A stretch of 64,000 bases of DNA from Candidatus Omnitrophota bacterium (GCA_022711115.1 JAKLFP010000001.1:453183-517182); one strand, 5' to 3'. Shown: positions 2,128 to 28,352, numbered from the stretch's first letter. The notes: generated by a model not told the origin, from the sequence alone. Program-made: numbers and translations.

Positions 2128-2195
2128 GTAAATAAAGAAAAGCAGAAAAATCTTTTTGCTTTTCCCGCTCCACGCTCTTCATCCTCGAGACAAAC

Positions 2196-4013: not shown

Positions 4014-4150
4014 AGATATTTCTCATAACCTCCAAGGCCACATTGAATCGATATCCAAAGAGATTCATATAAAGCTTAATCAATATATTTTTTTAAAGAA
4101 TGCAGTTATATTATCTTGCCAAATATACATATATAAAAAATCTCATATAG

Positions 4151-4166
4151 AGTTTCACGTGAAACG
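4151..4166. promoter_or_regulatory. parS centromere-like site (aGTTTCACGTGAAACg)
   Basis: 14-bp perfect palindrome GTTTCACGTGAAAC matching the parS consensus TGTTNCACGTGAAACA. Lies in the AT-rich 470-bp gap between mnmG and parA. Confidence 0.75.
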
Positions 4167-4457
4167 GCACAGTATTTTTTAAACTCATAGAGCTTCATTT
4201 AAAGATTATCTATTTAGAGGGCTATCCGAAAAATTTCGGATTCCGCTTTCACAAAAAGAAAAGTCCAAAATTTTTTACGGTATTGATATTATCATCAAAA
4301 TTTCGAAAAATGTCTCCAGGCTCTTAAAATTTTATTCTATGGCGAGCTCAGAGATGAACCGTATAAAATCAAATTTTAATGATTGAATGCCGTAAAAAAC
4401 GATGTAAAATAACTGTAATATTTGCCGATGTTATTTATGGCATACTAAGAAAACAAT

Positions 4458-4473
4458 GTTTCACGTGAAACGT
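4458..4473. promoter_or_regulatory. parS centromere-like site (TGTTTCACGTGAAACg)
   Basis: 15/16 match to the parS consensus. Located 12 bp upstream of the parA start, just before an AGGAGG ribosome-binding site. Confidence 0.8.
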
Positions 4474-4484
4474 CAGGAGGTTCT

Positions 4485-5360: not shown

Positions 5361-5392
5361 TGAAACCACAACCTATTTATTTATAAGGAGTT

Positions 5393-12693: not shown

Positions 12694-13947
12694 ATGACAA
12701 AAGCCGTTTTTGAAAGGAGCGCAACCAATATGATGATCAAACAAATGCTCAAGGACCGTATTTTAACAGATAAAGAACGAAAGAATCTTGCGATTCTTGA
12801 GGTCATTCGAAAAAACGGACCGATTTCCAGGACGGACATTTCCAAGCTTACTGAATTAAATATCGTTACCGTTTCCAACTATGTGAATCATTACATCAAA
12901 AAAGGACTTGTTGTCGAGGGAGAGCTGGATGAATCCACGGGGGGACGCAAGCCGGTCCTCGTCGAACTTAATCCCAAATCCGGATATATCGTTGGCGTAG
13001 GACTTAATATGATGAGCATGGTGGGCGTGCTTGTAGATCTTGAAATTAATGTGATCAGCGAAGTGAAGCGTGAAAGATCCCCGGAAAATTCCGAAAAAGT
13101 CATTTTGGAAATGGTCGATCTTGCGGCCGAGATTATCGATAAGGCAGAAATTGATAAATCAAAAATCGTGGGCGTCGGCGTCGGCGTGCCAGGGATTATT
13201 GATGAACGTGGCCGGACCATTCGCTGGCCGCAAAGTCTCGGCGATAAGGATATTTCGGTTTGCTCTTCCATCAAAGACACCTTCGAACGAAGATTAAACA
13301 TCCCGACAATTGTTGAAAATGACGCGAATGCGGCGGTGCTCGGAGAAAAATGGCTTGGGCTGGATCGTGACGTTCGCCATATGCTGTACATGTTCTCAGG
13401 CGTTGGCTGCGGTATTCTGATAAATGAGGAAATTTATCGCGGGGCCAACGGGGCTGCCGGAGAGCTCGGGATTAACAGCGCCCATTCGACCAAAGAATAT
13501 TCTCACAAAATCGCGACCCAGCTTGGACGGTGGGAAATGGATATCGGGATGGTTCGTCACGCACGCGAAAGGATCGAAAAAGGAGAAGAATCGATCTTGA
13601 AAGATTTGGTGCGTGGGGACCTGAACCTGCTGACTTTTAAAGAGATTGTCAGGGGCGTCAAAGAAAAAGATTCCCTGACCCTTAAAGTTGTTGAACAGGC
13701 CGGGCAAGACCTTGGGAAAAAAATAGCTTTTATCGTAAACCTTTTTAATCCGGAAGTTGTCGTGATCGGCGGGGGCATCGAAGATTGCGGCGCCACGCTG
13801 CTGGATTCTATCAAAAGCACAGTAAAAGAATGGTCTGTGGAAGAAGCCGCGTCGCAGGTCAAAATCATCCCTTCTGCTTTTGGTGAAAACGCCGTTGCGC
13901 TTGGTGTTGTGGGCATCGTCGCCCGAGAAATTTTCGCGCAGGCTTAA
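12694..13947 (+). CDS. ROK-family transcriptional regulator (NagC/XylR-like)
   Basis: N-terminal winged HTH (LAILEVIRKNGPISRTDISKLTELNIVTVSNYV) followed by a ROK sugar-kinase-like domain with glycine-rich GVGVGVPG. Confidence 0.8.
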   Translation: MTKAVFERSATNMMIKQMLKDRILTDKERKNLAILEVIRKNGPISRTDISKLTELNIVTVSNYVNHYIKKGLVVEGELDESTGGRKPVLVELNPKSGYIVGVGLNMMSMVGVLVDLEINVISEVKRERSPENSEKVILEMVDLAAEIIDKAEIDKSKIVGVGVGVPGIIDERGRTIRWPQSLGDKDISVCSSIKDTFERRLNIPTIVENDANAAVLGEKWLGLDRDVRHMLYMFSGVGCGILINEEIYRGANGAAGELGINSAHSTKEYSHKIATQLGRWEMDIGMVRHARERIEKGEESILKDLVRGDLNLLTFKEIVRGVKEKDSLTLKVVEQAGQDLGKKIAFIVNLFNPEVVVIGGGIEDCGATLLDSIKSTVKEWSVEEAASQVKIIPSAFGENAVALGVVGIVAREIFAQA

Positions 13948-13971
13948 TTTTTTTCGGGGCTTGAAAACAAC

Positions 13972-15006
13972 ATGATGGCTCTTATTCAAGAGCTTAAAGA
14001 AAAGGTTCTTTCCGGAGGTGAGATTTCTTCTGGCGAGGCTCTTTGCTTGGCTGTGACTGAAGAGCCCGAAATCGTGGACGCTTTGCTTGAAGCGGCCCAT
14101 GAGATTACGCTTCATTTCTGTTCGCAAAAGCCGGACCTTTGTTCCCTCATCAATGCAAAAAGCTACCTTTGCGCCGAAGACTGCGGTTTTTGTTCCCAAT
14201 CTTCTCATTATCAAACCGGTGCAGCACGTTACCCGCTCATGGAACCTGAGGAAATCGTACGCGTTGCAAAACAGTGCGAAAAAAAAGGCGTCCAAAGTTT
14301 TTGCATAGTGACAAGCGGTGAAACCTTAAATGCCCGGGAATTTGAACAGGTTCTTGAGACTTTTCATCGATTGAACGCAGAAACCGGTTTAAATCTTGAC
14401 GGATCGTTAGGCAATTTGACTGCGGGGCAGATTTGCAAACTCAAAGAAGCCGGGATGCGTCGTTTTAATCACAACCTGCAGTGCTCGCGCGATTTTTATC
14501 CAAAAATTGTTTCCACGCATACTTATGATAAACGAATGGAAACGTTGAAATTTTTGGAGGAAAACAAAGTCGAAATTTGTTCCGGCGGGATCTTAGGAAT
14601 GGGAGAAAGCCGTGAAGACAGAATCAAGCTTGCGTTTGAACTGAAAGCTTACGACCTGCATTGCCTGCCTATTAATATCTTAAATCCAAGGCCTGGAACA
14701 CCGCTTTGCAATCAGCTGCCTATCAACCCTTTAGAAATCATAAAAACCATTGCTATTTATCGCTTCATCCACCCGAAAGCCAATATCAAACTTGCCGGAG
14801 GACGGGAGCTCAATCTCGGAGTCTATTTTCAGGAAAAAGCCTTGCGCGGCGGCGCGAATGGACTGGTAGTTGGCGGTTATCTCACCACCGCTGGGAATCC
14901 GCTTCAAGAAGATATCAACATGCTCAGGCGGACAGGTTTTCTTGTCGGGGCGAATCAAGAACAGCCTTGCTGTAAGGGCTCTCAAACTTCAGTAACAAGT
15001 TGTTAG
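13972..15006 (+). CDS. bioB: Biotin synthase
   Basis: Radical SAM CxxxCxxC (CAEDCGFCSQSS). Also BioB motifs FNHNL, CSGGILGMGE, PINILNPRPGTPL and GGRE. Has an extra Cys-rich C-terminal tail (PCCKGSQTSVTSC). Confidence 0.9.
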   Translation: MMALIQELKEKVLSGGEISSGEALCLAVTEEPEIVDALLEAAHEITLHFCSQKPDLCSLINAKSYLCAEDCGFCSQSSHYQTGAARYPLMEPEEIVRVAKQCEKKGVQSFCIVTSGETLNAREFEQVLETFHRLNAETGLNLDGSLGNLTAGQICKLKEAGMRRFNHNLQCSRDFYPKIVSTHTYDKRMETLKFLEENKVEICSGGILGMGESREDRIKLAFELKAYDLHCLPINILNPRPGTPLCNQLPINPLEIIKTIAIYRFIHPKANIKLAGGRELNLGVYFQEKALRGGANGLVVGGYLTTAGNPLQEDINMLRRTGFLVGANQEQPCCKGSQTSVTSC

Positions 15007-15009
15007 GCC

Positions 15010-15738
15010 TTGGAACCTCTTCTTAAAGAAAAAACAATCCTCATTACAGGCGGCACAAGCCAACTGGGGCAGTCCTTTGTCCGGAAAGCTCTTGAACAAG
15101 GCGCCAAAGTTTTTTTTACCTACTTTCGAAACAAGGACTTTGCAGAACAATTACAAAAACTTGGCGCTAAGGGCTACCCTTGCGACCTGGCCAACATCAA
15201 TTCCATACATGAATTTGTCGCGGTCTTCAGGAAAGACGCTGAGCAGCTCGATGTTCTTATCCATAATGCGGCAATGACTGCGGACACAACGATCGAAAAA
15301 ATGTCGGAACAAGAATGGGATGCGGTGATGAAGGTGAATTTAAAAGCACCGTTCTATCTCACGAAGCAACTTTTGCCGCTGCTTTTTAAAGTTACACCAA
15401 GCAAAGTTTTTATGGTGGTAAGCCGGGCAGGCCTGAGCGGTCTTTATGGTGCGGCGAATTATGCGGCTTCCAAGGGCGGGCTTATTGCCATGGCCAAAAC
15501 GCTTGCCAAGGAGCTTGGACGGAAGAAAGTTCTCGTCAATGCCGTCAACCCGGGATTTATGTGTTCGGGCATGACTGTCCACGTCCCCGACAAAGTTTTG
15601 CAGAAAAACATCGAGGAAAGCCCGCTCAAAACCTTTTCCGGTCCTGAGGAAGTTGCCGGTTTTCTTGTTTATCTTTCTTCAGGTCTGATGCGACAGGTGA
15701 CAGGCCAAGTCTTTCATTTTGAATCCCGCCCGATATAG
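15010..15738 (+). CDS. FabG-like short-chain dehydrogenase (3-oxoacyl-ACP reductase homolog) embedded in the bio operon
   Basis: TTG start 4 bp after the bioB stop. TGGTSQLG Rossmann motif, and the active-site region VVSRAGLSGLYGAANYAASKGG contains the S...YxxxK catalytic residues. Confidence 0.75.
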   Translation: MEPLLKEKTILITGGTSQLGQSFVRKALEQGAKVFFTYFRNKDFAEQLQKLGAKGYPCDLANINSIHEFVAVFRKDAEQLDVLIHNAAMTADTTIEKMSEQEWDAVMKVNLKAPFYLTKQLLPLLFKVTPSKVFMVVSRAGLSGLYGAANYAASKGGLIAMAKTLAKELGRKKVLVNAVNPGFMCSGMTVHVPDKVLQKNIEESPLKTFSGPEEVAGFLVYLSSGLMRQVTGQVFHFESRPI

Positions 15739-15783
15739 GATAGAATTCCATTCTACTCATCAGCCAGGAGAGACATTATTACT

Positions 15784-16989
15784 ATGAAGCGACGTGTTGT
15801 GATCACAGGAATAGGCATTCTTTCTCCGATCGGGAACACCCTTAAAGAATTCGAGGAAAGTCTGAAAAAAGGAGTTTGCGGCAAGGACGACGCCGACTCT
15901 TCCAAAGTTTTGGGGTATAAGTTTCCGCCGCTTTTTCGTCTCAAAAACTTTAATCCGCATTCTTATGGTACGCACCTTCTGGACCCTTTTATTCAATATG
16001 CGGTAGCGGCGGCAGAACAGGCAATCAAGGATGCGAAGTTTGACCTTCAGTCCGTCGATCCTTACAGCATCGCATTGTCCGTCAGTTCCAGCAAAGGAGG
16101 CGTTCACACTCTGGATCGCCTAAAAGAACGGTTTCTTAAAAAACCCACGGCCATTTTGGGCGCAAGGCTTTATACCAGCGCCGTTCCGAATTTTGCCGAC
16201 CAATGGATCGCCAGGCGAATGGGTATTAAAGGGCCGGCTAAATGTTATGTAGCCGCATGCGCCACCGGAACCGTTGCCGTCATCGCTGGTTTTCGGATGG
16301 TTTCAGAAGGTCAGGCGGAATATTGTTTGGCAGGAGCGACCGACGCTTCGATTACACCGTTGATGCTCGGGGGCTACCAGAACATGGGCGCTCTTGCGAA
16401 AAGGAATATCCGTCCTTTTGATAAACACCGTGATGGATTTTTAGTCGGAGAAGGCGCCGGCGTCCTTTTTCTTGAAACGCTCGAAAGCGCGAAAAAACGC
16501 GGGGCAAAAATTTACGGCGAGATCCTCGAGGCAGCGCATGGGCAAAACACCACAGATCCAATCGCTTTTGATCCCGGCGACCACGCATTGTCTTTTACCC
16601 TTAAAACATTGATGCATCGGGCCGGGCTTTCTCCGGAGGAAATCGATTATATCAACCTGCATGGCACCGGGACGCGGCATGGCGATTTGTATGAAACGCT
16701 TGAATTGAAAGAAACTTTCGGAAAGCAGGCATACAAAATTCCGATGAGCTCCACCAAAGGGATGACAGGCCACATGCTTGGCGCGACAGGGGCCGCGGAG
16801 ATTATCGCGACGCTTTTGGGGATGCAGGAAAGTTTTGTGCCGCCGACCATCGGACTCGATCAAAAAGACCCCGCGTGCGACTTGGATTACACACCGGGAG
16901 AAATGCGTTCTCAAAAAATCACAACAGCGATCAAAATTTCCATGGGTTTTGGCGGACAGGTCGCGGTGATGGCGCTGCGCCGGCTATGA
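15784..16989 (+). CDS. KAS I/II-type beta-ketoacyl-ACP synthase (FabF/FabB-like) embedded in the bio operon
   Basis: 401 aa. N-terminus RRVVITGIGILSPIGN. Active-site Cys in VAACATGTVAV. His motifs NLHGTGTRHGD and KGMTGHMLGATGAAE. Its stop overlaps the bioF start as ATGA. Confidence 0.8.
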   Translation: MKRRVVITGIGILSPIGNTLKEFEESLKKGVCGKDDADSSKVLGYKFPPLFRLKNFNPHSYGTHLLDPFIQYAVAAAEQAIKDAKFDLQSVDPYSIALSVSSSKGGVHTLDRLKERFLKKPTAILGARLYTSAVPNFADQWIARRMGIKGPAKCYVAACATGTVAVIAGFRMVSEGQAEYCLAGATDASITPLMLGGYQNMGALAKRNIRPFDKHRDGFLVGEGAGVLFLETLESAKKRGAKIYGEILEAAHGQNTTDPIAFDPGDHALSFTLKTLMHRAGLSPEEIDYINLHGTGTRHGDLYETLELKETFGKQAYKIPMSSTKGMTGHMLGATGAAEIIATLLGMQESFVPPTIGLDQKDPACDLDYTPGEMRSQKITTAIKISMGFGGQVAVMALRRL

Positions 16990-18146
16990 GAAAAATCTGC
17001 CTTTCAGAGCTAGAAGAACTTAAACAGAGAAATCTTTACAGGGAATTGCGCGTCCTTGAAAACCATCAAGGCACAAAGGCCTATTTTCAAGGCCGTGAAC
17101 TACTTCTCTTTTGCAGCAATGATTATCTCGGATTAAGTCGCCATTCCCGGGTTGTCCAAGCATCACAAAAGGCACTGAAGCAATATGGCATTGGCGCGGG
17201 CGCAGCAAGGCTTATTTCCGGTAGCACGGAGGCACACAAAAGACTCGAGCAGAAAATCGCATGCCTCAAACAAAAAGAAAGCGCGCTCGTTTTTGCAACA
17301 GGATTTCTCGCCAATCTCGGGATTTTAACGGCGTTTGCCGGAGAAGGCGATGTGATCATTATGGATAAGCTTTGTCATGCGTCACTCATTGACGGCGCGC
17401 GGCTCTCCAAATCCGAGTTGCGCGTTTTTCCTCATAAAAATTATCGCAAGTGCGAAGAACTTCTTCAAAAAAGCAAAGACGCGCGAAGGCGAATTTTGGT
17501 AAGCGAAACTGTTTTCAGCATGGATGGTGATCTTGCGGACTTGAGAGAACTTATCCGTCTGAAAGAAAAATACGATGCTTTTTTTATGGTAGATGACGCG
17601 CATGGCACGGGCGTGCTTGGCCCGTATGGGCGTGGGGCCACCGAGAACAAAAAAATAGCCGGAAAAATCGACATCATCATGGGAACGCTTTCCAAAGCTA
17701 TCGGCGGATTGGGAGGTTTTGTCGCCGCGGACAAAGCTTTGGTCCATTATCTTATTAATTTTGCACGCCCATTCATTTTCACAACCGCCTTGCCGCCGGT
17801 TTTATGCGAAGCCGCTTACGCAGCTTTTTGTGTGATAGAAGAAGAACCGGCCATCAGAAAAAAACTTTGGCAAAACATCCAAGCAATTCATAAGGGCTTA
17901 ACGAAGCTCGACTTTTCGATTGCAAAACCCGAATCCGCGATTTTACCTGTCCTCTTTGGCAATGAAAGAAAAGCCATAGCGGCTTTTGAAGCGTTGCTGA
18001 AGCAAGGAATTTTTATCCCGGCGGTCCGCTACCCGACTGTTCCAAAAGGCAAAGCCCGGCTCCGCATCACGGTCAGCGCTGCGCATACCCAAAAAGATAT
18101 TGCAAAATTACTTCTGGCATTCAAAAAACTGAAGGCCGCTAAATAG
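16986..18146 (+). CDS. bioF: 8-amino-7-oxononanoate synthase
   Basis: PLP-dependent alpha-oxoamine synthase with full-length BioF resemblance and a SKAIGG-type lysine region. Start chosen at the internal ATG (MRKICLSELEELK...) that overlaps the KAS stop (ATGA); the listed ORF begins 111 nt earlier. Confidence 0.85.
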   Translation: MRKICLSELEELKQRNLYRELRVLENHQGTKAYFQGRELLLFCSNDYLGLSRHSRVVQASQKALKQYGIGAGAARLISGSTEAHKRLEQKIACLKQKESALVFATGFLANLGILTAFAGEGDVIIMDKLCHASLIDGARLSKSELRVFPHKNYRKCEELLQKSKDARRRILVSETVFSMDGDLADLRELIRLKEKYDAFFMVDDAHGTGVLGPYGRGATENKKIAGKIDIIMGTLSKAIGGLGGFVAADKALVHYLINFARPFIFTTALPPVLCEAAYAAFCVIEEEPAIRKKLWQNIQAIHKGLTKLDFSIAKPESAILPVLFGNERKAIAAFEALLKQGIFIPAVRYPTVPKGKARLRITVSAAHTQKDIAKLLLAFKKLKAAK

Positions 18147-18159
18147 AGAGACATTTCTT

Positions 18160-18810
18160 ATGATGAGAAAAACGATTCTAGTTGTTTTTTTTCTGGCAAT
18201 GATTTTTCAAGGAAGAAGTTTTGCGGCGGAAGGGAAATCCGTCAAATTACCGCCGCCACAAAGAGAGAACGGGAAACCTTTAATGCAGGCGTTGGGCGAA
18301 CGGCATAGCAGCCGCGAGTTCAGCCCCGAAGAGATTTCTCTGCAAACGCTTTCCAATCTTCTTTGGGCTGCAAATGGAATAAATCGTCCGGATGGGCGCC
18401 GGACCGCCCCTTCGGCGCATAACGCACAGGAAATCGATATTTATGTCGCTAAGAGAGAGGCGCTTTATTTATACCATGCCGACACCCACGAATTAACGTC
18501 TGTAGCCCAGGGAGACTTCCGGTCTTTCACCGGAAAGCAGTCTTTTGTCAAGGATGCGCCGGTGAGCCTTATCTTTGTTACCGATCTTGAAAAGCTGAGC
18601 GGAGATTCCGAACAAGATGCGAATTTTTACAGCAATACAGATACAGGCTATATCAGCCAAAATGTTTATCTCTATTGTGCTTCGGAAGGTCTTGCCACAG
18701 TGGTTCTTGGGTGGATTGACCGGGATCAAATAAACACAATTCTGAAACTTCGTCCACGACAACGCGTTATTCTGACCCAGCCTGTGGGTTATCCTAAAAA
18801 CAAAAAATGA
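18160..18810 (+). CDS. Nitroreductase-family flavoprotein with an N-terminal Sec-type signal peptide
   Basis: 216 aa. Clear signal peptide (MMRKTILVVFFLAMIFQGRSFA/AE). Nitroreductase-fold blocks (RHSSREFSPEEISLQTLSNLLWAANGINR...). Stop overlaps the bioA start (ATGA). Confidence 0.65.
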   Translation: MMRKTILVVFFLAMIFQGRSFAAEGKSVKLPPPQRENGKPLMQALGERHSSREFSPEEISLQTLSNLLWAANGINRPDGRRTAPSAHNAQEIDIYVAKREALYLYHADTHELTSVAQGDFRSFTGKQSFVKDAPVSLIFVTDLEKLSGDSEQDANFYSNTDTGYISQNVYLYCASEGLATVVLGWIDRDQINTILKLRPRQRVILTQPVGYPKNKK

Positions 18811-20153
18811 ACAAAAACGATTTAGTTGCTAAAGACAAAAAATATATCTGGCATCCATTCACGCAGATGCGTGATTGGCAATCGGAAGACGTGCTGGTGA
18901 TTGAAAAAGGCGAGGGTTGTTATTTGGTCGATACCCAAGGCCGCCGGTATCTCGACGGCGTGTCGTCGCTTTGGTGCAATGTGCACGGTCATCGCGTGAA
19001 AGCGCTCGACCAGGCCATTAAAAAACAGCTCGGAAAAATCGCACACAGCACTTTTTTAGGTCTCACCCACCCGCTAGCCATTGAACTTGCCGAAAGGCTT
19101 CTCTCTATGGCGCCAAAAGGTTTAACGCGCGTTTTTTATTCGGATTCAGGGTCCGAAGCCATGGAGATCGCACTCAAAATGGCGTTTCAATATTGGCAAC
19201 AATGCGGCCAGACGGGAAAAAAGAAATTTGCGAAACTTACCCATGCTTATCACGGTGACACGATCGGATCGGTAAGCGTTGGCGGCATCGATCTTTTCCA
19301 TCAGATCTACAAACCGCTTCTTTTTGATACCTTCGCAGTGCCGTCGCCTTATTGCTACCGGTGGCCTTCTACAAGCGATCCCGAGGAGGTCAAAGAAGCA
19401 TCTTTGAAAGCCATGGAAGCACTCTTCAAAAAGCATCATAAAGAGATCGCCGCATTAGTCATGGAACCTTTGATGCAAGGTGCGGCCGGGATGATCGACC
19501 AGCCGAAAGGATATATTTTCCGTGCGCGGCAACTGACAGAAAAGTATAATATCCTCCTGATCTTTGATGAAGTCGCTACGGGATTTGGTCGGACAGGGAA
19601 GATGTTCGCCGCGGGGCATGAGAAAGTTACTCCGGACCTTATGGCCGTTGCCAAAGGCATTACGGGCGGCTATTTACCGCTTGCCGCGACGCTCACGACC
19701 GAAAAAATTTATAAGGCGTTTCTTGGCAACTACGAAGAATTCAAAACATTTTTTCACGGACATACTTATACTGCCAATCCGTTGGCCTGCGCCGTCGCCA
19801 TCGCAAATCTCAAGCTTTTTGAAAAACAGAAAACAATCCGGAAGACACAAGCCAAAATTCGGCTGGTACAGGATCGGCTAAAAGGTTTTTATAATCTTCG
19901 CCATGTCGGTGATATCCGGCAAGTTGGTATGATGATCGGGATTGAATTGGTCCGTGATAAAAAGACCAAAGAAACTTACGATTCCAAAGAAAAGATTGGC
20001 ATTCGAGTGATTGAAAAAGCGAGAAAAAAAGGAGCCATCTTGCGCCCGCTAGGGTCTGTGATCGTATTGATGCCTCCTTTAGGGATGCATGAAAGACAGC
20101 TTCAACAGTTATTGAATATCACCTACCGGTCGATAAAAGAAGTTACTGAATAG
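18807..20153 (+). CDS. bioA: Adenosylmethionine-8-amino-7-oxononanoate aminotransferase
   Basis: Class III aminotransferase with BioA N-terminus (YIWHPFTQM...LVIEKGEGCYLVDTQGRRYLDGVSSLWCNVHGH) and a PLP lysine region. Confidence 0.9.
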   Translation: MNKNDLVAKDKKYIWHPFTQMRDWQSEDVLVIEKGEGCYLVDTQGRRYLDGVSSLWCNVHGHRVKALDQAIKKQLGKIAHSTFLGLTHPLAIELAERLLSMAPKGLTRVFYSDSGSEAMEIALKMAFQYWQQCGQTGKKKFAKLTHAYHGDTIGSVSVGGIDLFHQIYKPLLFDTFAVPSPYCYRWPSTSDPEEVKEASLKAMEALFKKHHKEIAALVMEPLMQGAAGMIDQPKGYIFRARQLTEKYNILLIFDEVATGFGRTGKMFAAGHEKVTPDLMAVAKGITGGYLPLAATLTTEKIYKAFLGNYEEFKTFFHGHTYTANPLACAVAIANLKLFEKQKTIRKTQAKIRLVQDRLKGFYNLRHVGDIRQVGMMIGIELVRDKKTKETYDSKEKIGIRVIEKARKKGAILRPLGSVIVLMPPLGMHERQLQQLLNITYRSIKEVTE

Positions 20154-20198
20154 CAGTTTGACGCAAGCAACGCAACGACAGCTTTTTTATTAACCGTT

Positions 20199-20951
20199 AT
20201 GCGAGGGAATATGAAAGCGGCAGGGATTTTTATCACAGGGACAGATACCGACGTCGGTAAAACCGTCGTCGCTGCGGGGCTTGCTCTCGTTCTTCGTGAT
20301 CGCGGACTCAAGGTTGGTGTGATGAAGCCAGTCGCGACAGGATGTTATGGCCTGGAGGAGAGGCTTATTCCTCAGGATGCCGCTTTTCTGATGGAGGCCG
20401 CACAAAATCAATTTGCCCCTTTAACGAGCCCGTCGCGTTTCCGGAATCCTCTGGCGCCAAGCGTTGCAGCCATGCTTGAAAAAAAAGAAGTCAATATTCA
20501 AAACATTCTCAAATGCTACCAACAGCTCCAGAAACATTATGATTTTCTTATCGTAGAAGGCGTAGGAGGTCTGATGGTGCCGCTCAAAAAAGATTATTAT
20601 GTGGCGAACCTCATTCGCGAGATGGGGCTGCCAATTCTAATTGTTTCTTATGCAGGACTCGGGGCCATCAACCATACGCTTTTGACCGTGGATGCGGCTG
20701 TGATCCGCGGTTTGGAATTACGGGGTATTATTTTTAACCGTGTTTCTGTTACGAATTATTCCTTGGCTGAGTTGACCAATCCCAAGGTGATTCACGATCT
20801 TTCGGGAGTTCCTATTTTGGGAAGTTTGCCAGATGTCGAAGGATTAAATCTGGATAGTTGTCAATTCGGCAGCCTCAAAGAGATCTTTCAGGAGCGAATC
20901 CAAGTCGACAAAATCCTTGGAGGTTTTACGCATCTAGCTCCTAGAAGATAG
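20199..20951 (+). CDS. bioD: Dethiobiotin synthetase
   Basis: P-loop FITGTDTDVGKT and BioD-like length (250 aa). Confidence 0.85.
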   Translation: MRGNMKAAGIFITGTDTDVGKTVVAAGLALVLRDRGLKVGVMKPVATGCYGLEERLIPQDAAFLMEAAQNQFAPLTSPSRFRNPLAPSVAAMLEKKEVNIQNILKCYQQLQKHYDFLIVEGVGGLMVPLKKDYYVANLIREMGLPILIVSYAGLGAINHTLLTVDAAVIRGLELRGIIFNRVSVTNYSLAELTNPKVIHDLSGVPILGSLPDVEGLNLDSCQFGSLKEIFQERIQVDKILGGFTHLAPRR

Positions 20952-20968
20952 CCTGAAAGGAACAAAAA

Positions 20969-22285
20969 TTGTCCACTCGCAACTTCGTTGGCATCCGCCT
21001 TGAAAGGAAAAAAGAGGCCAGTCTGCTTAACTGGAACCTCAAGCGGCCCTACACCCCCGAGAGAGTTCGTATTTCACTTCCAGCGACTGCCTACCCTTGC
21101 GTTCACGTCGGGAACAATGTGCAAACAGGGCAGAAGATCGCAGATCCCGTCGGGCCTGGGTGTGCGACCGTGCATTCAAGCATGGAAGGAGTCATCGAAA
21201 AGATAGCGATTTTTCCGGATGCGACAGGCGGCGAGAGTATGACGGTAGAGGTTCGCAGGCAAGGGGACCCCAAAGCGCCCGCAACATTCGAAAATGTTCG
21301 AAAAAACTGGGAGATTCTCAAGGAAGAAGAGCTTTTAGACATCTTTCAAAATTCCGGGATCGTTACCACAGATGCCTTGATGCAACCGGTACACGCCAAA
21401 ATAAAAAAAAATGAACAGCATCCAACTTTGATTATCAACGGCTGCGAACCTGAGCCGTACGTTACTTGTGAACAGGTGCTGGCCATGGCACATCCCCTGG
21501 AAATATTAAAAGGCGCCGAGATCTTAAAAAAAACTACGCGGGCAAACCAAATCCTTTTTGTTTTTGAAGATTGCAACTTGGAGTTAGTGGAACTTTTCAA
21601 AAGCAAAATTTATTTTTTAAAATGGGAACATGTCAAAGTGCGAACAGTGCCGGCCGTTTACCCGCAAGGACATGAAACCACATTGCTTCAGCGCTGGTTT
21701 TCCGGCAAAGAAGACCAGGCGATTGTGTTTCCAGCCTCCACGGCTTTTGCCGTTTATGAGGCGGTAGTTCACCAAAAGCCTTTTTATGAAAGAGTCTTGA
21801 CCGTAGGAGGCGAGTGTGTGATAGAACCGCGGAGTCTTTGGCTGCCTCTTGGAATTTCTTTTCGGGATGCCATTCACACCTGTAAGGGCGTTATGCGCGA
21901 ACCTCAGAAGGTTATCATGGGTGGACCCATGGCCGGAACAGCACAAGAGAATCTGGAAGTTTCTGTGATGGCGGGGACAAACGCTATTTTAGCGCTACCC
22001 AAAGAGGTTATAAGGGATAAAGCTGAAGAACCGTGCATTCGTTGCGGTGCCTGCGTTGACATGTGTCCGGTGTCTTTGTCACCCGCTATGATTACCTTGG
22101 CGGCGGAACACGGCGAATTTGAACTTGCGGAGAAATGGGATGTTTCAGCCTGCATCGAATGCGGTAATTGTAGTTATGTCTGCCCATCAAAGCGGCCGAT
22201 GTTGAAATGGATAAGAAAGGCTCAGGCGGAGATGGCCCAAACGGCTTTGCCCAAAAGTCAAAAAAACCATGAATACGCATCTTAA
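20969..22285 (+). CDS. RnfC/PduS-family iron-sulfur subunit homolog lacking the glycine-rich NADH/flavin motif
   Basis: TTG start with AAAGGA RBS, 18 bp after the bioD stop. N-terminal RnfC_N-like segment (LPATAYPCVHVGNNVQTGQKIADPVGPGCATVHSSMEGVIEKI). Two ferredoxin motifs (CIRCGACVDMCP, CIECGNCSYVCP). At the place where RnfC has GxGGAGFP the sequence reads SGIVTTDALMQP. Confidence 0.6.
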   Translation: MSTRNFVGIRLERKKEASLLNWNLKRPYTPERVRISLPATAYPCVHVGNNVQTGQKIADPVGPGCATVHSSMEGVIEKIAIFPDATGGESMTVEVRRQGDPKAPATFENVRKNWEILKEEELLDIFQNSGIVTTDALMQPVHAKIKKNEQHPTLIINGCEPEPYVTCEQVLAMAHPLEILKGAEILKKTTRANQILFVFEDCNLELVELFKSKIYFLKWEHVKVRTVPAVYPQGHETTLLQRWFSGKEDQAIVFPASTAFAVYEAVVHQKPFYERVLTVGGECVIEPRSLWLPLGISFRDAIHTCKGVMREPQKVIMGGPMAGTAQENLEVSVMAGTNAILALPKEVIRDKAEEPCIRCGACVDMCPVSLSPAMITLAAEHGEFELAEKWDVSACIECGNCSYVCPSKRPMLKWIRKAQAEMAQTALPKSQKNHEYAS

Positions 22286-23111
22286 AACATTGTCACCCCA
22301 CATTCGTTCCAGAGATTCTGTCGCCAAGAGATACTGGGGACTCACGCTTGCTTCGGTGCCTGTTTTTGTCGCCGTTATCTTAGGGGGCCAAGCGGGTGCT
22401 CTGAGAGTTCTTTTGTTCAGCATTATCAGCGCAGTAGCGTTTGATTTTTTGGGAGCGAAAATTTTGTTTAAAAAAGAACGTGTCAATAACGGTGAGGCGG
22501 TGCTAAGCGCGACACTTTTGACGCTTCTCCTTCCCAGGAATTGTCCTTTTGAGATTGCCGTATTCGGGATTTTTTTGGCGGTTTTTGTGGTCAAAGAACT
22601 TTTTGGGGGAACAGGCTCCTACCTTTTTCACCCCGTGCTGGCTGCCCGCATTTTTCTTCAAATGAGTTTTCCAGGATTTTTTGAAAACAGCGGCATGATC
22701 TTGGAAGAAAAAAGCGCTCTTTGGATACTTGGGGGGCTTTTAGTCAGCGGGGTGGCTGTCATAAGTCAGAAAAACAATCGGGAAATACCGCTTTTTTATA
22801 TTATGATTTCCTTGCTTTGTGTTTTATTGTTCCATTCTGGCATGGAGTCTTTAACGGTTTTAAATTGGATTTTTTTTACGGCATTTTTTCTTTTGGGAGA
22901 TTCCGTTGCGATGCCTCTGACTCGGAAAGGGACACGGATCTTTGTCTTAGGGGCGGCGCTTTTAAATTTCTTTTTCGAAGCGAAAGGTTTTTCTATGGCG
23001 GCGGCAGGCTACGCCATTTTATTGATGAATGCATTAACGCCATGGCTTGACGTGATGATGAAACCTGCCGCTTACAGAGCCAAGATCCATCTCAAGGCCA
23101 CCTATCCATGA
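22269..23111 (+). CDS. RnfD/NqrB-family membrane subunit homolog (short, no recognisable FMN-attachment motif)
   Basis: 280 aa polytopic. SPHIRS near the N-terminus, GGTGSYLFHPVLAARIFLQMSFP and a C-terminal block AFFLLGDSVAMPLTRKGTRIFVLGAALLNFFFEAKGFSMAAAGYAILLMNALTPWLD typical of RnfD/NqrB. No S/TGAT(P)L motif was found. Confidence 0.6.
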   Translation: MNTHLKTLSPHIRSRDSVAKRYWGLTLASVPVFVAVILGGQAGALRVLLFSIISAVAFDFLGAKILFKKERVNNGEAVLSATLLTLLLPRNCPFEIAVFGIFLAVFVVKELFGGTGSYLFHPVLAARIFLQMSFPGFFENSGMILEEKSALWILGGLLVSGVAVISQKNNREIPLFYIMISLLCVLLFHSGMESLTVLNWIFFTAFFLLGDSVAMPLTRKGTRIFVLGAALLNFFFEAKGFSMAAAGYAILLMNALTPWLDVMMKPAAYRAKIHLKATYP

Positions 23112-23257
23112 ACATAAAAAAAACGGTTTTAACAATGCTTCAGTATTTGTTCTTTGTTCTTTTTGTGGCCGTATTGCTGATCACGCTTTCGGGCGCAAAA
23201 ATGTTGAGCCAAGAGGTTCTGAAGAATGAATGGTATCGGGAGTTGATCCGGCCATGA
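23108..23257 (+). CDS. 49-aa single-TM protein translationally coupled to both neighbours (possible RnfG N-terminal anchor remnant)
   Basis: Not in the ORF track because it is under 60 aa. Its ATG overlaps the rnfD-like stop (ATGA at 23108-23111) and its stop overlaps the next gene's ATG (ATGA at 23254-23257). Sequence MNIKKTVLTMLQYLFFVLFVAVLLITLSGAKMLSQEVLKNEWYRELIRP. Confidence 0.4.
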   Translation: MNIKKTVLTMLQYLFFVLFVAVLLITLSGAKMLSQEVLKNEWYRELIRP

Positions 23258-23775
23258 AAATTCCCGACAGTCTTTTGTCCCGCATCATTTTTGCGTATCT
23301 TCCTTTCATGGTCTATGCCTTTGACCTTGAAAAGGCTTGGATCGCGGTGCTTTGTGTTGTTGCTGTTTTTTGGCTCACCGTTTTTTTCTTCTGGTTTACA
23401 CGGAATCTTTTCCCCGAAAAGCTCCGAAGCGAAGTTTTCTTCTTTTGGCTTCTTGCATGGGCCCAAGCGGTTTGGTATTTCACAAAACTTCAGCCTTTAT
23501 GGGCGCTCAGCGTTTTTTTCTTGATCCCTACCTCTTTTCTTGAGCCGAGCCAGAAAGCCAGCCGGGTGCGCGTTTTTTCTCGAGTGGTTCCGAGGTATTT
23601 TTGGGAAAGATTTTTGGCTGGATTTGGTTTTATCGGTTTTGTGATTGTGATGGCACTTGTTCAGGAGGTTTTAGGGCGCCAGTTCGGGATGATGTCTTTT
23701 CAACGGCCGGCCGGCATTTTGCTTTTACTTTCTTTAGCTGCTTTTTTATGGAAAAACCAGCCATATCAAAGGTGA
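23254..23775 (+). CDS. RnfE/RnfA (Rnf-Nqr) family membrane subunit homolog, divergent
   Basis: Polytopic membrane protein. The C-terminal region FLAGFGFIGFVIVMALVQEVLGRQFG resembles the RnfE block [25 protein letters not shown]. The track lists an alternative start at 23230. Confidence 0.45.
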   Translation: MKIPDSLLSRIIFAYLPFMVYAFDLEKAWIAVLCVVAVFWLTVFFFWFTRNLFPEKLRSEVFFFWLLAWAQAVWYFTKLQPLWALSVFFLIPTSFLEPSQKASRVRVFSRVVPRYFWERFLAGFGFIGFVIVMALVQEVLGRQFGMMSFQRPAGILLLLSLAAFLWKNQPYQR

Positions 23776-23776
23776 G

Positions 23777-24289
23777 ATGATGGTTTATTCTCTAATTATT
23801 ACTTTCGGTTTGTTGTTTGCGATTCGCGGCGTCAAAAGCTTGACGCTGCAAAATCCGGAGAAAACACTTCCTGAAGTCTGGCGCCAGGCCGTCGATTTTT
23901 GTTTGACGCTTGCGTTCACCCTTTTGTATTTTGAAGCCTCATTATGCATTGTAGGTATCCAGAGCTTTGTCCAGGACCATGCCTTGTTGGTGATTGGATT
24001 TTTGGCGTATGTCTTTTCAAAATACCAAAAGAAAACGGATATCTTTTTCCTCTCCATGACAGTCCTCACCTTTTTAATTTATTCCGAACAAAAGAATTTG
24101 CTGCACGGTCTCTTTTGGGTGGGTGCCGTGAGCATTGGGATAGCTTTGTTCCGGACTTGTTTTCTTGGATTGCGATACAAACTTTTGTTTTCTCGTGTTC
24201 CCAAGATGATGCAAGGGTGGCCGATTCTTTGCCTTTTGGCATCTCTTTTATCCCTGGCTCTTTGGGGAATTGGGAGGCTGATTTTCTAA
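23777..24289 (+). CDS. RnfA/RnfE (Rnf-Nqr) family membrane subunit homolog, divergent
   Basis: 170 aa polytopic. The C-terminal RVPKMMQGWPILCLLASLLSLALWGIG resembles the RnfA C-terminus [26 protein letters not shown]. Start is 2 bp after the previous stop. Confidence 0.45.
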   Translation: MMVYSLIITFGLLFAIRGVKSLTLQNPEKTLPEVWRQAVDFCLTLAFTLLYFEASLCIVGIQSFVQDHALLVIGFLAYVFSKYQKKTDIFFLSMTVLTFLIYSEQKNLLHGLFWVGAVSIGIALFRTCFLGLRYKLLFSRVPKMMQGWPILCLLASLLSLALWGIGRLIF

Positions 24290-24357
24290 GGTTTTTTCCA
24301 TGAAAGTCGAAAATAGGTAAAGGAAAATCATTTTTATAAACTCAAAGAGGACTTCCC

Positions 24358-25440
24358 ATGGCTATTGAAGAATTCTTGATCGGCGCAGTACAAAAAGAAG
24401 CTTCGGACATTCACCTTACTGCGGGACGACCGGTTACCTACCGTCTTGTCGGTGACCTGGTGTCGATGACAGACAAACCTTTGACCGCACAAGATACCGA
24501 ATCTTTTGCTAAAGAGATCACAACAGAGACGCAACGTAAAAAAATCGAAGAGGTAGGCGGTATTGATTTCGGTTTTTCTTTCAAGGATAAAGCACGCTTT
24601 CGTGTCTCCTGCTTCAAAACACAAGGCCGGTACGGGATCGTGCTGCGTCTTTTACCCACCCGGTTTTTTAATTTTCAAGACATCGGTTTGCCGCCTCAAA
24701 TCATAGAAGTTTTAAACCTTCCTCGCGGATTGGTTCTTGTGACCGGCCCGACAGGATCCGGTAAAACGACGTCGCTCGCGACAATGCTTAACTACATCAA
24801 TGAAAACTTTCCAAGGCATATCATTACCGTGGAAGATCCTGTGGAATTTGTGCATCCTCACAAAAAATCCTTAGTCACTCAACGAGAGGTTGGGGAGGAT
24901 GTCCCGAGCTTTTCCGAAGCCATCGTCAAATCCCTGCGCCAGGACCCGGACGTGATTCTTATCGGAGAAATGCGCGACCTGGCGACTATGGAATCCGCGA
25001 TCCGCGCAGCGGAAACAGGCCATTTGGTTTTTTCAACCTTACACACCACCGGCGCCGCACGAACGGTTGACCGCATCATCGATGTTTTTCCTTCTCATCA
25101 ACAGCCGCAGATTCGCATCCAGCTTGCCTCAACGGTCGTGGCTGTTATTTCCCAAGTGCTTATCCCGCGCTTGGACGGGAATGGACGTGTTGCCGCCTTT
25201 GAAATTATGTTCGCGACCCCGGCCATCCGCAATCTTATCCGTGAAGGAAAGACCTATCAAATTCTTTCGGAAATTCAGACCGGGTCCCGCTACGGTATGA
25301 TTATGCTGGATGAACATTTAAAGCAACTCTATGCCAGCGGGGCCATTGGCTACGAAGCAGCTTTAGAAGTTTCGGTCGACCCAAGAGAACTTGGGCTTCA
25401 GCTTTCCAAAATACAGTCGCCAATAAAAGGGAAAAAATAA
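24358..25440 (+). CDS. pilT: Type IV pilus retraction ATPase PilT
   Basis: Walker A GPTGSGKTT plus the PilT-specific AIRNLIREGK motif. 360 aa. Confidence 0.85.
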   Translation: MAIEEFLIGAVQKEASDIHLTAGRPVTYRLVGDLVSMTDKPLTAQDTESFAKEITTETQRKKIEEVGGIDFGFSFKDKARFRVSCFKTQGRYGIVLRLLPTRFFNFQDIGLPPQIIEVLNLPRGLVLVTGPTGSGKTTSLATMLNYINENFPRHIITVEDPVEFVHPHKKSLVTQREVGEDVPSFSEAIVKSLRQDPDVILIGEMRDLATMESAIRAAETGHLVFSTLHTTGAARTVDRIIDVFPSHQQPQIRIQLASTVVAVISQVLIPRLDGNGRVAAFEIMFATPAIRNLIREGKTYQILSEIQTGSRYGMIMLDEHLKQLYASGAIGYEAALEVSVDPRELGLQLSKIQSPIKGKK

Positions 25441-25640
25441 TTATCATATAAGGCAAATTATGCTTGACCTGTCAGGATGACTTCGTTATGCTATTGTCGC
25501 CTTGAGCAGGTAAGGCCAATCTAAATTCCATTCGAAAGAGATCATAGGTTCAATTCCATCGTTAAAATTTGACCGCTTTTTATCTTTCCATAGGTTATCT
25601 GGACCATCAAAGGGAAAATCATTAACAATTTGTTTCTGCT

Positions 25641-28352
25641 ATGAAAAAAAATATCCCAAGAAGCCCTCAAGGGGAGAAGCTTTTCCTTATTGACGGCAAT
25701 TCCTTTTGTTACCGGGCATTCTACGCGATTCCTGCTTTGACGAATTCTAAGGGAGAGCCGACGAACGCTATCTATGGTTTTGTGGCTATCTTGCGCAAAC
25801 TCATAGAGGAACAACAACCGGACCATCTCGCGGTCTGTTTTGACCGCAAAGAACCGACATTCCGCCATGAGAAGTATAAGGAATATAAGGCACAACGGAA
25901 ACCGATGCCTCCCGAGCTTGTGGCGCAAATGGAGCCTATCAAAGAATTTTGCCGCATCTCGGACATCCCCATTTTTGAAAAAGCAGGCTATGAAGCGGAT
26001 GATGTGATCGGCACTTTGGCAGTTTTAGGAAAAAAAGAAGGGCACCAAGTTTTTATTGTGACCGGAGATAAGGACGCTTTTCAATTAGTGGACGACAGGA
26101 TAAAAATCCTTCAACCCCATAAAGAAAACTTGGTCTATGACATAGCAAAGGTCAAAGAGCGCTTTAGCGGTTTAGGGCCGGAGAAGATTGTGGATATTCT
26201 GGCGCTGATGGGAGACGCTTCAGACAATATTCCGGGGGTTCCCGGGATTGGTGAAAAAACTGCGATAAAATTAATCCAAGAGTTCGGTTCCGTCGAAGAA
26301 CTTATTCATAATTGGGAGCGGCTCTCTTCGGAGAAACAGAAACAAAAAATAAAAGAAAACATGGAAGATCTTAAGATGTCCCAAATGCTCGCGACGATTG
26401 ACACGCGTGTTCCTCTTGAAGTCGACTGGAATGCTATGCGTATCGGTGAGCCGGACCATGCGATGCTGGCCGAATTTTTTAAGCGCTATGAATTTCGTGG
26501 TTTTCTTAAAACAGCTCTACCGCAGGGAGAAAAGGAAGAAGGGAAGCGCAGTTACCAGGCCGTTCAAAGCGAAGCTGAAATGAAAAAATTTCTTAGCAAA
26601 CTAAAAAATGAAAAAACTGTAAGTTTTGACACAGAAACTACTTCAAGCGATCCTATGGTCGGAGAACTTGTCGGCATGAGTTTTTCATGGGAGCCTTTTA
26701 CCGCCTACTACATACCGGTTTCTTCCTCGTTCCACACAGGAAAAGGGTTGCCGGTCAAAGAGGTGTTGGAAGATCTCAAAGCTATTTTTGAAGATGAGAA
26801 AATTCAAAAATACGGACAAAACATAAAATACGATCAAATCATTCTGGCGCGTAATGGCGTGCAAATGAAAGGCATTGCTTTTGACACCATGATCGCAAGC
26901 TACCTCATTGATCCCATCAAGCGGAACCACAACCTGGATGATATTTCGATGGAATACCTGAATGTAAGAAAGATCCCGACCGAAAGTTTGATCGGGGAAG
27001 GGAAAAAACAGATCAGCATGGCTGAAGTTCCGATTGAAAAAATTACGGAATACGCCTGCGAAGATGCCGATTGCGTTTTTCGTCTCGTTCCTATTTTGAA
27101 AGCCAAACTAAAAGAACTGAAGCTTATGGAGCTTTATGAAGCCGTTGAGTTGCCGCTTGCCGAAGTTTTAGCTCACATGGAGATGAATGGGGTAGCTCTC
27201 GACCTTGATTTCCTGAAGAAACTTTCGGAAAAAGCAGCGCAAGAAATCGCAGTTCTACAAAAAGAAATTTATCAAGAAGCTGGTGCAGCATTCAATCTGG
27301 ACTCGCCGAAACAAATAGCAGATATTCTTTTTGTTCAGAAAAAACTCCCGGCCTTCAAAAAAACAAAAACAGGATATTCGACGGATGCAAGCGTGCTTGA
27401 AAAACTGGCGCTTTCTTATGAACTGCCGCGGAAAATTTTGGAATATCGAGAACGATCCAAGCTGAAATCCACTTATTTGGATGCATTGCCTGAAATGGTC
27501 AATTCCAGCACTCATTGCGTGCATACTTCTTATCATCAAACAACGACGGACACGGGACGGCTTTCGAGTTCAGAACCTAATTTGCAGAATATCCCTATCA
27601 AAACAGAAACTGGAAGATTAGTGCGCAAAGCATTTATTCCCCGCGAACGGAAAAAAGAAAAAGGGAAGATTCTTTCTGCAGATTATTCTCAAATCGAACT
27701 GCGCATCCTCGCACATTTTTGCGAAGATCCGAGCTTGGTCAAAGCCTTTGCCGAAGACCGGGACATTCACAGCTTTACGGCAACGTTGCTTTACGGTGGG
27801 AAGGAACAGGATGTGACACGGGAGATGCGCAATGCCGCCAAGACGATCAATTTCAGCATTATTTACGGAAAAACAAGTTACGGTCTTTCCCAAGACCTTC
27901 ATATTTCGATTCAAGAAGCGGATGCGTTTATTAAGAATTATTTTGAACGATATAGAAAAATAAAAGAATTTCTGGATTCTCAACGAGAAAAAGCCAAAAA
28001 AGAAGGTTTTTTAACAACCCTTCTCGGCAGGCGTTCTTATTTCCCCAATATTCATGCCCCGAACATACAGCTTCGTCAATACGCGGAACGGGCGGCGATC
28101 AACGCACCGCTTCAGGGATCCGCCGCAGACTTGATCAAGGTTGCCATGATCGCGATCCAAAAAAAGCTGGAAGCTGAGCAATGCGAAAGCCTGATGATCA
28201 TGCAAGTTCATGACGAGCTTGTATTTGATGCTCCTGAGAAAGAAACCGAGGTGCTGTCTTCAATGGTAAAAAAAGAAATGGAACACGCCTGCAAACTTAA
28301 AGTGCCGCTTAAGGTCGATATTTCTGTGGGGGATTCATGGTACAAAAACTAG
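25641..28352 (+). CDS. polA: DNA polymerase I
   Basis: 903 aa. 5'-3' exonuclease N-terminus, a 3'-5' exonuclease DxE region (VSFDTETTS), and polymerase motifs (DYSQIELRILAH, QVHDELVFD). Confidence 0.95.
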   Translation: MKKNIPRSPQGEKLFLIDGNSFCYRAFYAIPALTNSKGEPTNAIYGFVAILRKLIEEQQPDHLAVCFDRKEPTFRHEKYKEYKAQRKPMPPELVAQMEPIKEFCRISDIPIFEKAGYEADDVIGTLAVLGKKEGHQVFIVTGDKDAFQLVDDRIKILQPHKENLVYDIAKVKERFSGLGPEKIVDILALMGDASDNIPGVPGIGEKTAIKLIQEFGSVEELIHNWERLSSEKQKQKIKENMEDLKMSQMLATIDTRVPLEVDWNAMRIGEPDHAMLAEFFKRYEFRGFLKTALPQGEKEEGKRSYQAVQSEAEMKKFLSKLKNEKTVSFDTETTSSDPMVGELVGMSFSWEPFTAYYIPVSSSFHTGKGLPVKEVLEDLKAIFEDEKIQKYGQNIKYDQIILARNGVQMKGIAFDTMIASYLIDPIKRNHNLDDISMEYLNVRKIPTESLIGEGKKQISMAEVPIEKITEYACEDADCVFRLVPILKAKLKELKLMELYEAVELPLAEVLAHMEMNGVALDLDFLKKLSEKAAQEIAVLQKEIYQEAGAAFNLDSPKQIADILFVQKKLPAFKKTKTGYSTDASVLEKLALSYELPRKILEYRERSKLKSTYLDALPEMVNSSTHCVHTSYHQTTTDTGRLSSSEPNLQNIPIKTETGRLVRKAFIPRERKKEKGKILSADYSQIELRILAHFCEDPSLVKAFAEDRDIHSFTATLLYGGKEQDVTREMRNAAKTINFSIIYGKTSYGLSQDLHISIQEADAFIKNYFERYRKIKEFLDSQREKAKKEGFLTTLLGRRSYFPNIHAPNIQLRQYAERAAINAPLQGSAADLIKVAMIAIQKKLEAEQCESLMIMQVHDELVFDAPEKETEVLSSMVKKEMEHACKLKVPLKVDISVGDSWYKN

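Follow-up and report, generated by a model that had tools for sequence, protein, structure and literature searches.

A cofactor-depleted descendant of the Rnf operon behind the biotin genes of an Omnitrophota clade

What does a set of Rnf-like membrane proteins do directly behind a cluster of biotin genes, and can it still perform the task of an Rnf complex? The question is raised by a window of 64,000 nucleotides (nt), the whole stretch of DNA analysed here, which is identical to contig DAOOUA010000002.1 of the Candidatus Omnitrophota metagenome-assembled genome GCA_035390585.1, and in which five tightly packed genes at 20969-24289 on the + strand follow bioD in the canonical rnfC-D-G-E-A order. 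A sequence-only reading of the window had assigned these genes to an RnfC-family iron–sulfur (Fe-S) subunit, an RnfD/NqrB-type subunit, a single-helix peptide of 49 amino acids (aa) and two RnfE/RnfA-type subunits, had remarked on missing cofactor motifs, and had suggested a dedicated role in biotin synthesis, for example the supply of reductant to BioB. The assignments and the losses are confirmed below, and the biotin role is not. The module is well supported as a variant, specific to a large clade of Omnitrophota, that descends from a canonical rnfCDGEAB operon, and it probably no longer works as an Rnf pump. The features of the module are the following.

20969-22285, + strand: RnfC' (C'), 438 aa, with an RnfC_N barrel, a NuoF-like domain, an SLBB domain and a ferredoxin domain
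22269-23111, + strand: RnfD' (D'), 280 aa, RnfD/NqrB membrane core, PF03116
23108-23257, + strand: stub, a conserved open reading frame (ORF) for a 49-aa single-helix peptide at the rnfG position
23254-23775, + strand: RnfE' (E'), 173 aa, six-helix RnfE/NqrD fold
23777-24289, + strand: RnfA' (A'), 170 aa, RnfA/NqrE fold
24260-24291, + strand: weak hairpin resembling a terminator, with a T-run behind it, overlapping the end of A', from a consensus scan only

The descent of the individual proteins was followed with hidden Markov models (HMMs), family profiles and predicted folds. C' scores 301.9 bits on the TIGR01945 rnfC model (cut-off 245.95), carries the Pfam domains RnfC_N, Complex1_51K, SLBB and Fer4, and matches three solved RnfC chains (7zc6_C, 8ahx_C and 9eri_C) at E=1e-52 to 1e-59, and D' reaches 151 bits on PF03116, under the rnfD equivalog cut-offs. 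The similarity of A' to RnfA is restricted to the C-terminal 70 aa, that is, to the last two helices (TIGR01943, E=1.6e-5; 9eri_A, E=4e-5); the AlphaFold model of A' (predicted local distance difference test, pLDDT, of 74.8) finds RnfA, NqrE, NqrD or RnfE in its top 11 PDB matches by Foldseek, with template-modelling (TM) scores of 0.45-0.59. Single-sequence and close-clade tests of E' gave nothing significant (phmmer and the close-clade profile against PDB; hhalign against E. coli RsxE and RsxA), and its homology emerged only after an exhaustive profile search had widened the family to 106 representatives at 50% identity, all of 150-200 aa except two fusions and a few truncated sequences. An 89-sequence profile of this widened family retrieves RnfE from PDB at E=2.4e-8 (7zc6_E) to 7.9e-8 and NqrD at 2.7e-6, hhalign against canonical RnfE gives a 94.6% probability over 163 columns, PF02508 is touched by 23 of the 89 members, and the AlphaFold model (pLDDT 92.9) has NqrD or RnfE as all of its top 10 matches. 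The Rnf membrane folds are accordingly represented by D' (PF03116), E' (profile and fold) and A' (fold and C-terminal HMM), and all subunits score higher on Rnf than on Nqr models, so that the family assignments made from the bare sequence are upheld by TIGR01945, PF03116 and TIGR01943, by the E' family profile and by the predicted folds.

The E' and A' proteins occur as a natural fusion in a relative (P0288, 299 aa; E' HMM at residues 9-152, A' HMM at residues 181-298), which supports a conserved E'/A' heterodimer. Another protein, P0289 (308 aa), is probably also a single-chain E'-A' fusion.

Between D' and E', at exactly the slot filled by rnfG in the reference canonical rnfCDGEAB operon (locus L040), lies the stub, a single-helix peptide of 34-49 aa across the family with the motif MNIKK..(K/Q)YLF(L/F)xLFLxLLxAIL, found in 20 of 26 scanned loci (six escaped the filter) and also in L037-L039. 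No RnfG signal was detected in the stub with Pfam, NCBIfam or PDB, and no FMN_bind or RsxG-like match in the 64-kb window or the related loci; judged by position and topology only, the stub is probably what is left of RnfG, its membrane anchor (TM1). In L035 (870-1589) and L079 (13559-14236) the stub is replaced by a protein of 225-239 aa with a similar N-terminal helix and a domain of ~190 aa, which may be a degenerate RnfG; the 239-aa protein of L035 has no Pfam, NCBIfam or PDB match.

Whether such a module can still transfer electrons depends on its cofactor sites. In the A. woodii Rnf structure, the ligands are T156 of RnfD, T185 of RnfG, C25 and C113 of RnfA, and C25 and C108 of RnfE, with N123 and D249 of RnfD as riboflavin ligands, and mutants in the [2Fe-2S] cysteines, in RnfG T185 or in the riboflavin ligands showed neither activity nor autotrophic growth (PMC11889175). 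The NuoF-like domain of C' is without the glycine-rich loop for flavin mononucleotide (FMN) and reduced nicotinamide adenine dinucleotide (NADH), since TTDALMQP in the window stands against GMGGATFP in 7zc6_C (the sequence there reads SGIVTTDALMQPVHAK); GLVTTDxxMEPVHxK is conserved family-wide in place of this loop, and the same scan found GxGG[AGS] in 0 of 53 metagenome C' of the family and in 15 of 16 canonical-like controls. The FMN-threonine loop of RnfD (40-70 aa, D-x-x-S-x-A-T-P-L) is deleted in all family members: residues 142 and 144 of the query align to residues 144 and 186 of 9eri_D, the deletion is also seen against 8ahx_D and 7zc6_D, and the motif is present in 7 of 8 canonical sequences and in no family sequence of alignment A3, and in 0 of 47 D' of metagenome loci. 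The [2Fe-2S] cysteines of E' are replaced (LG-x-C-P by L-A-x-L-P, N-C by S-(L/V)) and no cysteine column is conserved among the 89 sequences, and A' has cysteines only at 128 and 152, with none at the equivalents of RnfA C25 and C113, in an N-terminal alignment that is weak. Searches of the window and of every related locus gave no RsxB or canonical RnfB match. Five of the defining Rnf features tested are absent from the module. The earlier reading had reported an altered GxGGAGFP position next to two intact 4Fe-4S motifs in C', the lack of an FMN-attachment motif in D' and the lack of rnfB and rnfG; the first of these is reproduced by the PDB alignments and the 53-member scan, the second proves to be the deletion of the entire loop, and the third holds within the window and the related loci.

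Locus L104 (9530-12897) has a C' that still reads a near-canonical GVVGLGGEPFPPH and a D' that keeps the canonical riboflavin motif FGGLGQNPFNPA, yet its FMN loop, G domain and [2Fe-2S] cysteines have already disappeared; this lineage resembles a halfway stage in the decay, and a decay gradient can be seen between lineages. The nearest canonical RnfD (P0102) comes from an unrelated organism, its PolA being 41% identical.

Because there is no transmembrane electron path, no NAD+ reduction and no RnfB ferredoxin entry, as judged against published structures and mutagenesis, the module is not expected to be a ferredoxin:NAD+ oxidoreductase or a redox-driven pump. The sequence of events that would best explain it is one in which rnfB was lost and rnfG was cut to its membrane helix, the transmembrane electron path being erased with the RnfC FMN/NADH loop, the RnfD FMN-threonine loop, the RnfG FMN domain and the four RnfA/RnfE cysteines, and the two [4Fe-4S] motifs of C' and part of the riboflavin pocket of D' being left over. 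The five proteins would still be made as a unit and kept by purifying selection, and would form a non-pumping membrane complex whose D'/E'/A' core might conduct ions or small solutes or be purely structural, with C' as a cytoplasmic cap, like the cofactor-free NqrA in Na+-NQR, and with Fe-S clusters that would serve folding or docking and, at most, redox sensing. To this reading as a whole, a cofactor-depleted Rnf descendant that is kept by selection, does not pump, and owes its biotin neighbourhood to synteny, we give about even credence. The more specific proposal of a 'pseudo-Rnf', an rnfCDGEA set minus RnfB that shed its whole transmembrane cofactor chain and was re-used outside respiration (to conduct ions or solutes, or as a membrane platform with an Fe-S cap that might be a redox sensor), is held more tentatively, at somewhat less than even credence; if true, it would be the first Rnf/Nqr membrane scaffold kept without its redox chemistry.

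The conservation of the module bears on whether it is kept at all. The five-gene architecture was found, with intact ORFs, in ~90 related loci, all named ones being Omnitrophota: 19 species-representative genomes (Omnitrophota or unlabelled), 63 metagenome loci and several further contigs, in a family of ~100 D' clusters at 90% identity and 81 A' clusters. The metagenome scan was probed with a conserved RnfC' segment; the broad E' alignment had no stretch conserved enough. The ratios of nonsynonymous to synonymous substitution rates (dN/dS; Nei–Gojobori method, NG86, on pairs with dS of 0.05-1.5) are 0.13 for C', 0.16 for D', 0.12 for E' and 0.24 for A', with 0.075 for BioD, 0.056 for PilT and 0.039 for Rho among the neighbours, and 0.04-0.13 for the neighbouring housekeeping genes. 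Family-specific motifs are preserved despite the fast divergence. Because dN/dS lies at 0.12-0.24, the genes are not pseudogenes, and the module is under purifying selection. A non-functional relic, that is, a decaying operon pending deletion, would account for the faster evolution relative to the neighbours and for the disappearance of nearly all catalytic features, but it is at odds with these ratios, with five ORFs that stay intact, translationally coupled and marked by family motifs even where D' identity between loci drops to ~30%, and with the retained E'-A' fusion, and we regard it as the least probable of the explanations considered.

Several points nevertheless weigh against the reading of a selection-kept, non-pumping Rnf descendant. 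The pairs used for dN/dS are close to synonymous saturation (median dS about 1), D' is only 30-50% identical between loci whose Rho proteins are 87-91% identical, and four proteins evolving much faster than their neighbours also fit relaxed constraint. The conducting or scaffolding role is deduced only from what remains of the complex; an RnfB-like or flavin partner could be encoded elsewhere in the genome, the search having covered the window and the related loci; and the strict retention of the Fe-S motifs, together with GLVTTDxxMEPVHxK and the riboflavin Asp, could reflect a residual redox function.

This last point leads to the main rival, in which a short redox chain would survive between the two [4Fe-4S] clusters of RnfC', a riboflavin in RnfD' and a membrane quinone or other acceptor, with a cytoplasmic donor docking at the former FMN/NADH site, in a manner resembling the last steps of Na+-NQR (NqrB riboflavin to ubiquinone). 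The eight Fe-S cysteines (two CxxCxxCxxxCP motifs) are invariant in the C' of 26 genome loci and of L037-L039, divergent loci included, both [4Fe-4S] motifs are matched by 50 of 53 metagenome C', and the glycine-rich loop has been replaced by a newly conserved motif, all of which would suit such a chain. The same applies to the riboflavin Asp (A. woodii D249), kept in the D' of 25 of 26 loci, a retention that does not in itself establish binding, and to the canonical N..N motif retained in deeper lineages; the exit of electrons in NQR from riboflavin to an NqrB-bound quinone (PMC12174285) offers a parallel. However, the riboflavin Asn (N123) is His in most close-clade D' and canonical in L104 and L106, RnfD is said to lack the amphipathic helices that form the quinone pocket of NqrB (PMC12174285), no donor or acceptor could be identified in any locus, and Fe-S clusters are often kept for folding alone. 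The short redox chain is judged unlikely, and still lower odds are given to support of BioB, to a DsbA link and to pure decay.

The neighbourhood of the module, to which the biotin hypothesis owes its appeal, is made up as follows.

13972-15006, + strand: bioB
15010-15738, + strand: FabG-like short-chain dehydrogenase/reductase (SDR) gene
15784-16989, + strand: FabF-like ketosynthase (KAS) gene
end at 18146, + strand: bioF
18160-18810, + strand: secreted nitroreductase/SagB-like gene
18807-20153, + strand: bioA
20199-20951, + strand: bioD, dethiobiotin synthetase, the final gene of the bio cluster, given as context outside the module (PF13500/CbiA annotation on identical contigs)
24358-25440: pilT, followed by polA, coaE and rho

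The TAG stop of bioD (20949-20951) is separated from the TTG start of C' (20969) by 17 nt that hold the Shine-Dalgarno-like GAAAGGAA, and bioD is 72-85% identical in related loci. An 18-bp gap followed by chained ATGA overlaps had been described; the gap is in fact 17 nt, and the ATGA overlaps hold for the D'/stub and stub/E' junctions, whereas C' and D' overlap by 17 nt and E' and A' are spaced by 1 nt. A promoter and terminator scan of 13000-26000 gave site counts not above shuffled expectation and did not inform on operon boundaries; the hairpin overlapping the end of A' may be where the transcription unit stops ahead of pilT, with the same reservation that total sites do not exceed shuffled expectation, and no terminator-like site was seen at the bioD/C' junction in the consensus scan, which is weak evidence. 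Because of the 17-nt gap, the Shine-Dalgarno-like stretch and the lack of a terminator-like site at the junction, co-transcription of the module with the bio genes is plausible in the sub-clade of the window.

Does this proximity reflect a function in biotin synthesis? In the sub-clade of the window, whose genomes are close relatives, the order ROK-bioB-SDR-KAS-bioF-bioA-bioD-C'-D'-stub-E'-A'-pilT-polA-coaE-rho is nearly invariant, and a block running from ROK-bioB to pilT-polA-coaE-rho-rpmE-prfA, housekeeping genes included, is syntenic across the clade. Upstream of C' in the 63 metagenome family loci surveyed, bioD lies directly in 25, bioD-mnmA, sometimes with a PP-loop/LarE-like gene, in 20, mnmA at the end of the contig in 5, and unrelated genes in 3 divergent loci that retain pilT-polA downstream, the contig not covering this side in the remaining 10. 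The expectation that relatives would show bioD followed by an rnfC-like gene is therefore borne out for the 25 loci with direct contact and fails for the 20 with mnmA in between and the three with unrelated genes. On the other side, A' is followed by pilT in 30 of 32 cases and by polA in the other two, so that the pilT-A' adjacency is tighter than that of bioD and C'. The direct contact of bioD with C' is then a derived juxtaposition inside a conserved block of inherited gene order, and the adjacency carries little functional weight because the whole region is syntenic across the clade.

A module dedicated to biotin, delivering electrons or Fe-S/sulfur to the radical S-adenosylmethionine enzyme BioB or acting as a membrane scaffold for the pathway, would draw on bioD lying 17 nt upstream with the Shine-Dalgarno-like site and no terminator-like site between, and on the 45 metagenome loci, out of 53 with an identified upstream gene, in which the bio cluster precedes C' either immediately or with mnmA in between. 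Nevertheless, roughly every second lineage has mnmA, with or without the PP-loop gene, between bioD and C', the three divergent loci keep pilT-polA downstream without any bio gene next to C', the bioB, SDR/KAS and bioF genes of L006 and L020 are not adjacent, and the block is shared with housekeeping genes. No entry site for NAD(P)H, ferredoxin or flavodoxin is left, and since RnfB, the NADH/FMN site and any recognisable electron entry or exit are missing, the module would be a poor source of low-potential reductant. The dedicated role proposed from the sequence alone finds no support in these results, and we consider it very improbable; the biotin neighbourhood is a matter of conserved synteny and, in the sub-clade of the window, probably of shared transcription as well, and not of functional coupling.

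Three other candidates raised by the neighbourhood were examined and set aside. A divergent lineage apparently without bio genes (L037) has a contig that ends at mnmA, and bioD lies just upstream of mnmA in longer contigs. A BioD-RnfC' fusion (a 713-aa ORF in L055 and L056) is an artefact of an open upstream frame, bioD being in a different frame. A functional link to pilT, suggested by the 30 of 32 adjacencies, has a 68-nt gap with a hairpin-like site in between, concerns a highly conserved protein of housekeeping type, and has nothing else in its favour. The pilT adjacency also holds where polA-coaE-rho is replaced (L039) and where bio genes are missing upstream (L078 and L086).

Some observations concern the bio cluster and the window itself. 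The FabG-like SDR and FabF-like ketosynthase genes between bioB and bioF, both under the FabG/FabF equivalog cut-offs, occupy the same place in L008, L013, L015, L038, L039 and most metagenome loci; bioC, bioH, bioW, bioI and bioZ were not found near the bio cluster, and the pair may provide a dedicated route to a pimeloyl thioester. The nitroreductase/SagB-like gene between bioF and bioA (18160-18810) has a signal peptide, is missing from the same spot in L003 and L005, varies among contigs with identical RnfC', and is found again in L038 and L084. The genes yidC, mnmG (gidA), parA and parB in the first part of the window (490-6355) suggest that the region lies near the chromosomal replication origin.

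The junction between C' and D' gives rise to a further alternative. A DsbA-like lipoprotein of 418-790 aa, with two or three DsbA/thioredoxin repeats and CPFC motifs, matching NF041057 (the Rcas_1661 family) at E=1e-102, is encoded between C' and D' in 10 of 55 loci, and could point to the module as the membrane partner of this lipoprotein in a periplasmic thiol-disulfide link. The lipoprotein is, however, missing from the window and its whole sub-clade, D', E' and A' have no conserved cysteine pairs for a relay, and unrelated opposite-strand insertions at the same spot indicate that the site may simply tolerate insertions; this link is considered improbable. Loci with the lipoprotein gene are L037 (2542-4914) and also L069, L071, L076, L079, L080, L082, L085, L090, L101 and L103. 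The opposite-strand insertions that split rnfC' from rnfD', from which the tolerance of the junction is deduced, are those of L089 (10915-14231) and L070 (10915-18489, - strand), with ThiF-like, nitroreductase-like and PilZ-plus-acyltransferase-like genes and, in L070, an ATP-binding cassette (ABC) transporter.

Reduced Rnf gene sets were also seen on unrelated contigs. L117 (7142-9675), with a high guanine-plus-cytosine (GC) content, has an RnfC/RnfD pair without the glycine-rich loop (SGITEWNAPHLPIHKK) or the FMN-threonine motif (DAAAMPAPL), followed by thrS and not by rnfE/rnfA, and may be an independent degenerate RnfC-RnfD pair. L123 (9521-13190) has rnfC-D-E-A with the motifs present (GMGGASFP, SGAS, LGLCP and NC), and has neither an rnfG between D and E nor an rnfB behind A.

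How, then, does the module compare with the systems already described? No account of such a cofactor-depleted Rnf complex was found in the literature searched, in agreement with the sequence-only reading, to whose author none was known. Metabolic models of Omnitrophota routinely credit a canonical Rnf for energy conservation (PMC8542988, PMC10066038), and NCBI and JGI label the D' of this clade 'RnfABCDGE type electron transport complex subunit D'; an Rnf annotation would be wrong in this clade, because the module is without sites that are essential by A. woodii mutagenesis. A 2025 review describes the membrane-subunit cofactors of RNF and NQR as 'strictly conserved' (PMC12174285), so that the Rnf/Nqr membrane scaffold would here outlive them under selection, which raises the question of a role of the scaffold itself.

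With Rnf (7ZC6, 8AHX, 9ERI) the module shares the C-D-G-E-A order, an RnfC' over the TIGR01945 cut-off with both [4Fe-4S] motifs, the PF03116 core, the RnfE/RnfA folds and a single helix at the RnfG slot, and it differs in being without RnfB, the RnfG flavin domain, the RnfC FMN/NADH loop, the RnfD FMN-threonine loop and the [2Fe-2S] cysteines. PrdC is likewise an RnfC-family protein outside a full Rnf complex, and C' gives a weak match to its model (TIGR04481, 111 bits), far below the 490-bit cut-off; PrdC, moreover, is soluble, stand-alone and encoded in the prd operon, whereas C' is encoded with RnfD, RnfE and RnfA homologs. Judged by sequence and predicted fold, the module clearly descends from Rnf, but ought not to be classed with functional Rnf or Nqr complexes.

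Na+-NQR resembles the module in deriving from an rnfCDGEA-type operon minus rnfB, and in that NqrA and RnfC' have both lost the NADH/FMN site; NqrA, an RnfC homolog, is cofactor-free, structurally retained and required (PMC4014512, PMC12174285), and is without the Fe-S cysteines that RnfC' retains. The covalent FMN on NqrB and NqrC and the Fe centre on NqrD/E are not recovered in the module, given the same motif losses as for Rnf, and no NqrF-like ORF is present among the called genes, pilT (30/32) or polA (2/32) following A'. NQR gained the NqrF input and kept the NqrB/NqrC flavins and the NqrD/E [2Fe-2S] centre, and the module has neither. In a published proposal for the origin of Na+-NQR, RnfC degenerates once RnfB has been lost (Reyes-Prieto et al. 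2014, PMC4014512; PMC12174285), and the Omnitrophota module would offer a living example of this step, taken down a different path from that of Na+-NQR.

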